The notes under the pieces are model-generated. The model was not told the DNA's origin, did no database searches, and worked only from the letters and a program-made list of their open reading frames with translations. Shown here one piece after another: positions 48,149 to 50,189 of a DNA stretch of 64,000 nt. Source of the stretch: Candidatus Omnitrophota bacterium (GTDB lineage: Bacteria; Omnitrophota; Gorgyraeia; JACQQV01); the NCBI GenBank assembly GCA_016206785.1, contig JACQQV010000028.1, forward strand, positions 5,438 through 69,437, written 5' to 3'. Made by a program: the position numbers and the translations under genes. The first letter of the stretch is position 1; each line of letters begins with the position of its first letter.

Positions 48149-49210
48149 ATGCCAGAATTAAGAAAGGATCCGGTCGTCGGCCGTTGGATGATTATCGCTA
48201 CGGAACGGTCAAAACGGCCGACCGATTTTGAAGGAGGTCACACGCAGCCCCAAGAGGAAGGTCCCTGCCCTTTTTGCCAAGGGCATGAATCGGAGACCCC
48301 TCCTGAAATCTTCTCATTGCGTCAGCCCGGCACAAAACCGGATAGCCCAGGTTGGGATGTGCGAGTGGTTTCCAACGTCTCTCCCATTCTTCGAATCGAA
48401 GGGGACATCCAGCGACGGGCAAAGGGGATGTATGACACGATGCATGGCCTCGGAGCCCACGAGGTCATCATTGAGACACCTCACCATGCCCGGAACATGG
48501 CGGACCTTGAAAGGGCCCAGATTGCCAAAGTCCTGACCGCCTATGCCCAACGTCTCAATGACCTCGACAGGGATCCCCGTTTCAAATACGTTCTGATCTT
48601 CAAAAATCATGGGCTCGCCGCCGGAGGGGGAGATATCCTCCATACCCGCTCGCAGTTGATCGCCATGGCGGTCAACCCGAAACTCATTAAGGAAGAGTTG
48701 TTGGGTGCCCACCGCTATTTTGATTACCGGGAACGGTGCATCTTCTGCGATATCATCCAGCAGGAACTGGAAACAGGGGAACGGATTGTAGCGGAAACAG
48801 ATACGATGGTCGGTTTCTGTCCTTATGCCTCGCCCTTCCCATTTGAAATGTGGGTCCTTCCCAAGCGCCACAGCCCCGACTTCGGGAAAATTTCTGAAGT
48901 GGAAAAATGGGACATGGCGTCGGTCTTGAAGACGGCCCTTTCCAAACTGTCCCAAGCGCTCCAGGACCCTCCTTATAATTATGTCCTGCACACCGCTCCC
49001 TTCCGTCGGGAAAAGTTGGGATATTGGAAAACGATTGAGGAAGATTTTCACTGGCACCTGGAGATTATGCCGCGACTGACGAAGGTTGCCGGCTTTGAAT
49101 GGGGATCGGGGGTCTACATCAACCCGACGCCGCCGGAAGAGGCGGCTGCGTATTTGAGGAAACTGGAGACAACGGATGGCGCAGTTAAGGCGAGACCCGA
49201 TCACGGGTAG
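48149..49210 (+). CDS. GalT-like HIT-superfamily nucleotidyltransferase paralog 1 (nucleophile His replaced)
   Basis: CPFCQGHE zinc motif; [12 protein letters not shown]; active-site pentapeptide reads HTRSQ rather than HPHGQ/HPHSQ. Confidence 0.7.
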   Translation: MPELRKDPVVGRWMIIATERSKRPTDFEGGHTQPQEEGPCPFCQGHESETPPEIFSLRQPGTKPDSPGWDVRVVSNVSPILRIEGDIQRRAKGMYDTMHGLGAHEVIIETPHHARNMADLERAQIAKVLTAYAQRLNDLDRDPRFKYVLIFKNHGLAAGGGDILHTRSQLIAMAVNPKLIKEELLGAHRYFDYRERCIFCDIIQQELETGERIVAETDTMVGFCPYASPFPFEMWVLPKRHSPDFGKISEVEKWDMASVLKTALSKLSQALQDPPYNYVLHTAPFRREKLGYWKTIEEDFHWHLEIMPRLTKVAGFEWGSGVYINPTPPEEAAAYLRKLETTDGAVKARPDHG

Positions 49211-50189
49211 ATGGATTATTGTCGATCTTGAAAATCCGAAAGGGCCGGGCGATTTTGACATAGAGGTCAATCAGAAAAAAGGAGGAACTTGTCCTTTCTG
49301 TTATGGAAGTGAGCATATGACACCGCCGGAGATCGATGCGTTTCGCACACCGGGGACGGCGCGCAACACCCCCGGTTGGTTTACCCGTGTCGTTCCCAAC
49401 AAGTTTCCCGCCCTCCAGATCGAAGGAAACCTGGATCGACTCGGTGTCGGGATTTACGACCGAACAAACGGCGTGGGGGCCCATGAGGTCATCATTGAAA
49501 CGCCCCACCATCACAAGGAACTGAACGATCTGAGTCCGGAAGAGGTTCTCCATGTCCTCCTTGCTTATCGGAACCGGAGCATCGACCTCAAGGGGGACAA
49601 GCGTTTTAAATATCTGATGATCTTTAAAAACTATGGAAGGAGCGCAGGGGCGAGCCTTGAGCATCCCCACTCACAGCTTATCGCGTTGCCGTTCGTCCCG
49701 AAGCGGGTGACAGAGGAACTTAAGGGGGCGGAACGTTATTTCGAATACCGGGACCGTTGCGGCTATTGTGACATGGTGCATCAAGAGATGGAGGACAAAG
49801 AACGTGTTGTCTGCCAGAACGAGGACTTTATCGCTTTTGCCCCCTTTGTCTCACGATTTCCATTCGAATGCATGCTCCTTCCCAAAGAACATGCCTCTGA
49901 TTTTAGCCAGATCGAGGAAAGAAAACTTCTCGAATTGGCAAAACTCCTCAAGGATCTTCTGTCACGGCTCAAGGAAGCGCTCAGGGATCCCGCGTACAAC
50001 CTTCTTCTTCACACTTCTCCGGTGGAGAATATTTATGACATAAGTTACCATTGGCATATGGAGATGATGCCCCGCTTAACGCAGGTGATGGGATTTGAGT
50101 GGGGAACAGGGTTCTACATCAATCCCACTTCTCCCGAGGATGCAGCCCGTTATCTGCGGGGCGATGGCCCAAAAAATACCTCATCTTAA
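49176..50189 (+). CDS. galactose-1-phosphate uridylyltransferase-family (GalT-like, HIT superfamily) nucleotidyltransferase paralog 2
   Basis: CPFCYGSEH; [12 protein letters not shown]; intact [11 protein letters not shown] (HxHxQ); about 45 percent identical by eye to the upstream paralog. Confidence 0.75.

Follow-up and report, generated by a model that had tools for sequence, protein, structure and literature searches.

Reciprocal active-site losses suggest that tandem GalT-like paralogues of Omnitrophota form an obligate heterodimer with a single catalytic site

The stretch of Candidatus Omnitrophota DNA analysed here (64 kb of contig JACQQV010000028.1, hereafter the window) carries two overlapping paralogous genes related to GalT and ADP-glucose phosphorylase, which have lost complementary parts of their active sites and which, we propose, probably encode the two chains of one heterodimeric enzyme. 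Copy 1 (open reading frame 1, ORF1; 48149-49210, + strand) encodes a protein of 353 amino acids (aa) with a degenerate active site in cis, and copy 2 (ORF2; 49176-50189, + strand) a catalytic-type paralogue of 337 aa whose cis site is intact. The genes overlap by 35 nucleotides (nt) in different reading frames, and their products are 50% identical over 337 residues (E 1e-119), have the CPFC motif and a 12-residue block in common, and both match PF01087 (GalP_UDP_transf) and PF02744 (GalP_UDP_tr_C) above the gathering score, in agreement with a first-pass annotation of this DNA that had read them as two overlapping GalT-family genes with common motifs. That annotation had also correctly placed the pair ahead of a glycolytic block. 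The gap gene (Gp_dh_N/Gp_dh_C, glyceraldehyde-3-phosphate dehydrogenase; 50203-51243) starts 13 nt past the ORF2 stop codon, its ribosome-binding site GGAGGAG beginning right at the end of that stop, and is followed, as the rest of a putative operon on the + strand, by pgk (PGK; 51266-52465), tpiA (TIM; 52472-53248) and secG (SecG; 53245-53616).

We found that the two copies differ in the pentapeptide that holds the catalytic nucleophile. In ORF2 it is H163-P-H165-S-Q167, where CAC at 49668-49670 encodes H165, whereas in ORF1 it reads H165-T-R167-S-Q169 (48641-48655, + strand), the Arg codon CGC at 48647-48649 being a single transition away from CAC. HMMER alignments with At5g18200 (1Z84), its H186G mutant (2H39), the Pyrobaculum-type structure 6K5Z and E. 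coli GalT (1HXP) all place R167 opposite the nucleophile His without a gap, so that H-T-R-S-Q pairs with H-S-H186-S-Q of At5g18200 and with H-P-H166-G-Q of E. coli GalT. As the alignments to these four solved homologues are gap-free around the motif, a nucleophile His that is merely offset in ORF1 is ruled out, and the His-to-Arg replacement that had been read from the sequence (HTRSQ in copy 1 versus HPHSQ in copy 2) stands against both GalT and ADP-glucose phosphorylase. In the H-x-H-x-Q motif, the second His is the nucleotidyl-accepting nucleophile; ORF2 carries this motif and ORF1 does not, and the Arg opposite the nucleophile makes ORF1 a member of the fold but not a canonical catalytic one. 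The DNA of the window matches a Candidatus Omnitrophica metagenome-assembled genome (P0001) identically. The nucleophile position holds Arg or Lys in 112 of the best 120 ORF1 homologues from a collection of 5.8 billion proteins, which rules out a sequencing error or a private mutation (CGC for CAC) and indicates that the substitution marks a conserved clade.

When one genome per species was scanned, 80 loci were obtained, 45 of them Omnitrophota-type (titled Omnitrophota or, in some automated records of metagenome-assembled genomes, "uncultured Planctomycetia") and 35 from other phyla. All 45 Omnitrophota-type loci carry copy 1 and then copy 2 in tandem, in the same order, downstream of priA-fmt. 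The gap gene comes next in essentially all of those that reach far enough, and after it usually come pgk-tpiA-secG and a gene for the same solute-binding protein. The spacing between the copies is mostly -14 to +4 nt, as is typical of translational coupling. The loci of other phyla (Anaerolineae, Acidobacteriota, Zixibacteria, Latescibacterota, Elusimicrobia, Ignavibacteria and others) have, in 35/35 cases, a single gene, which encodes H-x-H-[ST]-Q and is not adjacent to gap, and we refer to these as singletons. In a neighbour-joining tree, copy 1 and copy 2 are each monophyletic. Linkage to gap is not absolute, since a Peptidase_S55 gene and a HEPN/nucleotidyltransferase pair take its place after one Omnitrophota-type pair with His167 in copy 1 (L084:4001-6029). 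ORF1 of the window ends in a C-terminal tail of about 14 residues (49161-49210) that is missing in most orthologues and that overlaps the start of ORF2, in the other frame, over most of its length (from 49176); at related loci, copy 1 and copy 2 mostly abut or overlap by 1-14 nt only.

The losses in the two copies proved to be reciprocal. We compared 35 singletons, 46 copy 1 and 46 copy 2 sequences column by column, using ORF1 numbering throughout. Arg20, Arg23, Asn76, Lys77, Phe/Tyr78, Ala160, Ser/Thr161 and His167 are each present in 35/35 singletons. Copy 2 retains the last six of these positions in 46/46 sequences, but has Arg20 in only 4/46 and Arg23 in only 2/46. Copy 1, conversely, keeps Arg20 in 46/46 and Arg23 in 45/46, while position 76 is Ser in 38 and Asn in 8, Lys77 remains in 5/46, and position 78 is Phe in one sequence and Tyr in none of the 46. 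Further along copy 1, position 160 is Gly in 22, Ser in 14 and Ala in 9, position 161 is Gly in 25, Ser/Thr in 17 and Ala in 3, and position 167 is Arg in 41, His in 3, Lys in one and Ile in one. An intact N-K-F motif is thereby gone from all 46 copy 1 sequences, the phosphate-loop Ser/Thr has turned into Gly or Ala in 28/46, and Ala160 is changed in 37/46. Copy 1 has in addition a one-residue loop insertion at position 162, which is Arg or Lys in 33/46, and position 164 is Arg or Lys in 37/46. What one copy has lost, the other keeps in 100% of sequences, Arg23 of copy 1 (45/46) being the only deviation. The metal-site residues C40, C43, H113 and H165 are invariant in copy 1, copy 2 and singletons alike, and they align with the CPFC and His positions of At5g18200, which predicts a zinc site beside the active site.

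The two proteins of the window follow this pattern. ORF1 has V77 and S78 in place of Lys and Phe, G160 and G161 in place of Ala and Ser, the one-residue loop insertion, and R167 in place of His; it retains both Cys/His metal sites, the C-terminal GFEWGxGxYINP loop, and the trans-acting arginines R20 (codon 48206-48208) and R23 (48215-48217). In ORF2, the cis elements N75-K76-F77, A159-S160 and H163-P-H165-S-Q167 are all present, and N20 and G23 stand where every singleton carries the Arg pair. Among 240 homologues from the same 5.8-billion-protein collection, 119 of 119 full-length ORF1-type matches have lost the cis site and kept the trans arginines, and 120 of 120 ORF2-type matches have kept the cis site and lost the trans arginines. 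One copy 1 sublineage retains His167, yet has lost N-K-F in the same way. Hence, the loss of N-K-F, and not the exchange of His for Arg, is the universal mark of the degenerate site: the exchange holds as such a mark in most copy 1 sequences, but fails in that sublineage. We also considered a charge swap that ties His167 of copy 1 to Arg20 of copy 2; it fits L001, L008 and L009 but was dropped over L084 (the independent P0088 lineage), where His167 of copy 1 is accompanied by E20/H23 in copy 2. Among 150 diverse representatives of the family (P0242-P0390), 27 look cis-intact and trans-lost and 22 look degenerate in both respects; these may partly be alignment noise, or may reflect similar paralogue pairs in other lineages.

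Copy 1 does not have the appearance of a gene in decay. Mean identity among orthologues is 61% for copy 1 versus 57% for copy 2, and in 77% of genome pairs copy 1 is better conserved than copy 2, indicating at the sequence level that it is under purifying selection. Together with a confident AlphaFold2 (AF2) model, this rules out a decaying pseudogene. The AF2 monomer model of ORF1 has a predicted local distance difference test score (pLDDT) of 80 and a predicted template modelling score (pTM) of 0.83, its low-confidence segments including the C-terminal trans loop. Foldseek returned the At5g18200 structures as top matches (template modelling score, TM, 0.75-0.89), and the model matched 1ZWJ, 1Z84, 2H39, 1HXP and 5IN3 with a probability of 1.00.

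To see what the losses mean for catalysis, they can be mapped onto the known dimers. In homodimers of this fold, each of the two active sites is assembled from both chains. One chain provides the cis parts: the ribose/strand motif N-x-F, the phosphate loop G-x-S, and H-x-H-x-Q, which includes the nucleophile His. The other provides the trans parts, which are the R-x-x-R-P strand at its N-terminus and the GFE...Y loop at its C-terminus. In human GALT, the hexose-phosphate site is made by both chains, with Arg48 supplied by the opposite chain and facing residue 188 (PMC5081055), and molecular dynamics gave stable inter-subunit contacts R48A-F99B, H47A-P100B, S45A-A101B and R51B-D98A (PMC8513031). 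By alignment, R20/R23 of ORF1 correspond to R28/R31 of E. coli GalT and R48/R51 of human GALT, and N75-K76-F77-P78-A79 of ORF2 corresponds to N97-D98-F99-P100-A101 of human GALT. The arginines that copy 2 has lost thus belong to a strand that reaches into the partner's site and touches the motif that copy 1 has lost, which puts both sets of losses in one composite site. Judged by homology, a copy 1:copy 2 dimer would concentrate the reciprocal losses in that one site and leave the other complete, whereas a homodimer of copy 2 would lack the arginines in both sites and a homodimer of copy 1 would lack the nucleophile in both.

We propose, with a probability of roughly 70%, that copy 1 and copy 2 form an obligate heterodimer with one catalytic site, such that a HIT branch III enzyme has turned into an obligate two-gene assembly that is conserved across Omnitrophota. 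The copies would be co-translated and would then assemble as a heterodimer of the GalT/ADP-glucose-phosphorylase type. Its working site would combine N75-K76-F77, S160 and His165 of copy 2 with Arg20 and Arg23 of copy 1, and would carry out ping-pong nucleotidyl transfer via a nucleotidyl-His165 intermediate. Its other site would lack K77, F78, S161 and His167 (here Arg) in cis, from copy 1, with N76 also gone in most other copy 1 sequences, and would lack Arg20 and Arg23 in trans, from copy 2; we infer that this second site is dead for nucleotidyl transfer. The first-pass annotation had suggested a heterodimer of an enzyme and a pseudoenzyme, or a partner of altered specificity, in place of simple redundancy, and the 45/45 pairs, the reciprocal losses, the mapping onto a composite site and one natural fusion now all argue for such an assembly.

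That fusion, P0241, is a protein of 599 aa that emerged from a profile-free scan of 1.84 billion representatives. It is encoded at L083:6001-7800 (GCA_003558915.1, contig PWOP01000182.1), directly upstream of gap-pgk-tpiA-secG. In its GalT-like first half, CPFC and H-x-H are gone while the N-terminal ...ERAKRP strand and the C-terminal half-domain remain; its second half begins at CPFC, without the N-terminal strand, and has an intact cis site. As far as its sequence tells, the fusion retains and loses just those parts that the heterodimer model predicts to be needed and dispensable. In a MAFFT alignment, the homologues of P0241 all align to its N-terminal 34 residues and its second half, and the first half has no depth of alignment. 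P0293 (at L085) has a copy 1 that has decayed likewise, in the usual synteny. L086 (P0258), considered as an independent degenerate lineage, was uninformative, as the contig is rearranged beside the gene. At L083, a phosphoglucomutase gene lies 3.7 kb upstream of P0241. A separate protein, P0255 (871 aa), has two full tandem GalT-like modules, both with H-x-H-S-Q, after a long low-complexity N-terminus, and is a covalently linked pseudo-dimer, its source possibly being eukaryotic.

Several points weigh against the heterodimer. The assignment of cis and trans parts is taken from human and E. coli GalT, which are ~20-24% identical to these proteins, and not from the closer At5g18200; the structure predictions are of monomers, so that heterodimerisation is deduced from the comparison; and the fusion P0241 is a single-member cluster from one assembly. 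In a few loci, the two copies lie 50-226 nt apart. The C-terminal trans loop of copy 2, GFEWGxGxYINP, is fully conserved though it would point into the dead site, part of which may thus still bind something. Position 167 shows positive conservation of Arg/Lys, and most copy 1 sequences have gained further basic residues at 162 and 164; judged by sequence, plain loss of function does not account for them, and, like the kept loop of copy 2, these basic residues would be compatible with a remodelled anion-binding pocket, possibly regulatory, or with purely structural roles. The substrate, finally, is guessed from one plant homologue and the gene neighbourhood.

An arrangement in which the two genes merely serve the same pathway, copy 2 as an ordinary homodimeric enzyme and copy 1 as a separate homodimer that is either a non-catalytic ligand-binding or regulatory protein or some other enzyme, would agree with the evidently homo-oligomeric state of the family's singletons, with the retention in both copies of both metal sites and of the dimer-forming C-terminal loop, and with the wider gene spacing at some loci. 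We nevertheless regard it as improbable. A copy 2 homodimer would have to work without Arg20 and Arg23 in both of its sites, although both are invariant in the 35 singletons, and in copy 1 the same arginines are 100% and 98% conserved though they would be aimed at dead sites; the losses, moreover, are exactly reciprocal in 239/239 full-length homologues, and a fused form exists. Less probable again is a neofunctionalised copy 1 that is catalytic with changed chemistry, its Arg167 aiding single-displacement nucleotidyl or phosphoryl transfer, or hydrolysis, on another substrate. The selection for Arg/Lys at 167 (112/120 homologues), the basic residues gained at 162 and 164, the retention of Q169, N153, the Zn ligands and the partner's sugar-binding loop, and the greater conservation of copy 1 compared to copy 2 could all be explained in this way. 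But the N-K-F of the nucleotide site, the phosphate-loop Ser and the trans Arg pair of copy 2 have all gone, one sublineage combines His167 with the same loss of N-K-F, and in P0241 and P0293 the N-terminal half-domain of copy 1 (CPFC, H-x-H) has decayed while pair and synteny persist.

The database names imply something simpler, namely a duplication of the classical Leloir galactose-1-phosphate uridylyltransferase, and this we consider very improbable indeed. Both proteins bear that name in their sources, and both narrowly pass TIGR00209 (galT_1; 107 and 120 bits against a cut-off of 102). However, they fall far short of the equivalog NF008724 (124 and 136 bits against 448), and their similarity to the ADP-glucose phosphorylase At5g18200 (E 1.4e-73 for ORF1 and 3.7e-72 for ORF2) far exceeds that to E. 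coli GalT (~1e-24). The genomic context points away from galactose as well, being gap-pgk-tpiA in this phylum and glgA elsewhere. Among the genes called from 10 kb upstream to 2.5 kb downstream of ORF1, none belongs to the GHMP-kinase family, that of galK. The first-pass statement that neither galK nor galE is present thus stands for the kinase, whereas a gene for a short-chain dehydrogenase/reductase (SDR) epimerase/dehydratase at 41734-42777 leaves the absence of galE unproven; this sole epimerase-family gene of that stretch sits in a glycan cluster, while the conserved partners of the pair are gap-pgk-tpiA.

A link to glycogen emerged from the neighbours of the singletons. In 13/35 singleton loci, a glgA gene (Glyco_transf_5 + Glycos_transf_1) lies immediately downstream on the same strand (L039:7031-8509, L075:7044-8507, L080:7042-8709, L054:7080-8594 and nine more), and singleton and glgA look like a conserved two-gene unit. 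The order copy 1-copy 2-gap-glgA occurs in three Omnitrophota loci of one sublineage (L031:9165-10610, L038:9065-10492, L040:3779-5140), and in P0262 (814 aa), P0280 (875 aa) and P0325 (858 aa) a GlgA or GH57 domain is fused to a GalT-like domain that is complete, with R-x-x-R and H-x-H intact. In the 64-kb window itself, phmmer with a GlgA query found no glgA. Omnitrophota have been described as uncultured sugar fermenters that use the Embden-Meyerhof-Parnas (EMP) pathway and make glycogen (PMC8542988). From the closeness to ADP-glucose phosphorylase, the adjacency and fusion to glgA and the glycogen-making phylum, we infer an interconversion of nucleoside diphosphate (NDP)-glucose and glucose-1-phosphate. 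The reaction would be NDP-glucose + inorganic phosphate <-> glucose-1-phosphate + NDP, most likely with ADP-glucose, and would tie alpha-glucan (glycogen) metabolism to the co-transcribed genes of lower glycolysis. That ADP-glucose is the substrate of the complex itself is a guess, from homology and context, to which we would give slightly less than even odds. The role suggested in the first pass, a phosphorylase-type reaction on ADP- or UDP-hexoses rather than Leloir galactose catabolism, thus gains support, at the level of sequence comparison, from the nearest relative, the glgA adjacency and the GlgA/GH57 fusions.

If the second site is dead for transfer, it may have been put to another use. 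A more speculative and, in our estimate, unlikely extension is that it has been rebuilt into an anion-binding allosteric pocket that senses a sugar phosphate or glycolytic intermediate and adjusts NDP-glucose/glycogen flux to the co-transcribed gap-pgk-tpiA genes. This idea builds on the loss of the trans arginines and the nucleotide motif, the gain of Arg/Lys at 167, 164 and 162, and the retention of the partner's hexose-phosphate loop; if true, it would make the pocket a HIT-fold counterpart of GMPPA or of the large subunit of AGPase. Linked to this is the possibility that the whole glgA-associated family makes ADP-glucose from ADP and glucose-1-phosphate, which, if true, would be a GlgC-independent, ATP-saving path to glycogen in energy-limited anaerobes.

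The closest relative among characterised proteins is At5g18200 (1Z84, 1ZWJ, 2H39), an ADP-glucose phosphorylase according to McCoy et al. 2006 as cited in PMC6329318. It is the best match of both ORFs in sequence (E 1e-72 to 1e-74) and fold (TM 0.75-0.89), has both Cys/His metal sites, the H-x-H-x-Q strand and the C-terminal GFExG loop, and probably shares, by analogy, nucleotidyl transfer to phosphate via a nucleotidyl-His. The plant enzyme, however, is the product of one gene, whereas here there are two paralogues, one without the nucleophile and N-x-F and the other without R-x-x-R. E. coli and human GalT (1HXP, 5IN3) share the fold and the composite active sites at the dimer interface, and R28/R31, N77-D78-F79 and H164/H166/Q168 of the E. 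coli enzyme all have direct equivalents here; they differ in their low identity (20-24%), in the Leloir context that is lacking near the pair, in NF008724, which the pair does not reach, and in that two different chains are proposed here. In mechanism, the closest known system is, by analogy, trypanosomatid deoxyhypusine synthase, in which each DHSc/DHSp heterodimer contains one site that functions and one that is dead (Afanador et al. 2018, as described in PMC7581365). There, too, paralogues complement a shared active site after duplication of a homo-oligomer, but fold and chemistry are unrelated, and the system is eukaryotic and experimentally shown, whereas the present one is bacterial, phylum-wide and supported by comparative evidence.

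Inactive paralogues that partner active ones also occur among other enzymes of NDP-sugar metabolism. The large and small subunits of plant AGPase and the GlgC/GlgD proteins of Firmicutes are partnerships of this kind. GMPPA, likewise, is the inactive paralogue partner of GMPPB (PMC11228364). Much as in the pair proposed here, an inactive paralogue in GMPPA/GMPPB, AGPase and GlgC/GlgD joins the active enzyme of NDP-sugar synthesis, and the degenerate site can sense a ligand and regulate flux; these proteins, however, have the pyrophosphorylase (GlgC-like) fold, and their active sites are not split between chains. Within the HIT superfamily, avian Asw (HINTW) was reportedly proposed, by Pace and Brenner in 2003, to form a pseudoenzyme heterodimer with Hint. 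There as well, a paralogue without catalytic residues would pair with an active one, but Asw belongs to the Hint branch, was proposed to act as a dominant-negative inhibitor, and does not form complementary halves of a site. In the literature that we searched, no GalT/HIT-superfamily heterodimer or pseudoenzyme pair is described, nor a galT-glgA link.

If the heterodimer exists, the pair would represent an interlocking of paralogues, where, after duplication of a homodimer with shared sites, the copies lost different halves of one and the same site. The interlocked state would have been kept across a whole phylum, a pattern that fits constructive neutral evolution or subfunctionalisation at a protein interface. 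It would also bear on annotation: hundreds of database entries name both genes "galactose-1-phosphate uridylyltransferase", while one of the products cannot be such an enzyme and is probably required as a partner by the other. The adjacency of glgA and the GlgA/GH57 fusions point to an under-studied bacterial ADP-glucose-phosphorylase-like family tied to glycogen, which in Omnitrophota is linked directly to the genes of lower glycolysis.

Expression signals flank the putative operon. A sigma-70-like promoter candidate, TTGTAA-16-(TGc)TATAAT (48076-48103, + strand; 10/12 match with a TG-extended -10), lies 45 nt ahead of ORF1, over the final codons of fmt. It had been called the best promoter of the window; the site is real, but it is only co-best, tying at 10/12 with four other sites, among which it alone has a perfect TATAAT plus TG; it also stands before a gene. 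Sites resembling TTGCAA-16-TGnTATAAT occur 37-75 nt upstream of copy 1 in ~13/42 related loci, and a promoter-like site that scores at least 9/12 is found in 22/42 of these loci versus 19% of background windows. At the other end, an intrinsic-terminator-like hairpin with a 13-bp stem and a T-run (53641-53670, + strand) follows secG; as the strongest such site in 45-55.5 kb, it is the probable 3' end of a copy1-copy2-gap-pgk-tpiA-secG transcription unit, as judged from sequence features.

Upstream of ORF1 lie fmt, priA, a UDG-family gene and, as had been noted in the first pass, a glycan-synthesis cluster, which contains DegT, a GT2 glycosyltransferase, the SDR epimerase/dehydratase, a HAD phosphatase and an MGDG-synthase-like glycosyltransferase. 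The region 38904-45168 comprises the GT2 gene, a 692-aa protein without a Pfam match (39659-41737), the SDR gene, the phosphatase (PNK3P/HAD), the MGDG-synthase-like gene (GT28) and the UDG-family gene. The order HAD, MGDG-synthase, priA, fmt is seen again in L085, a different Omnitrophota contig. An ORF of 1255 aa occupies 60074-63841 on the - strand, at the window's end.

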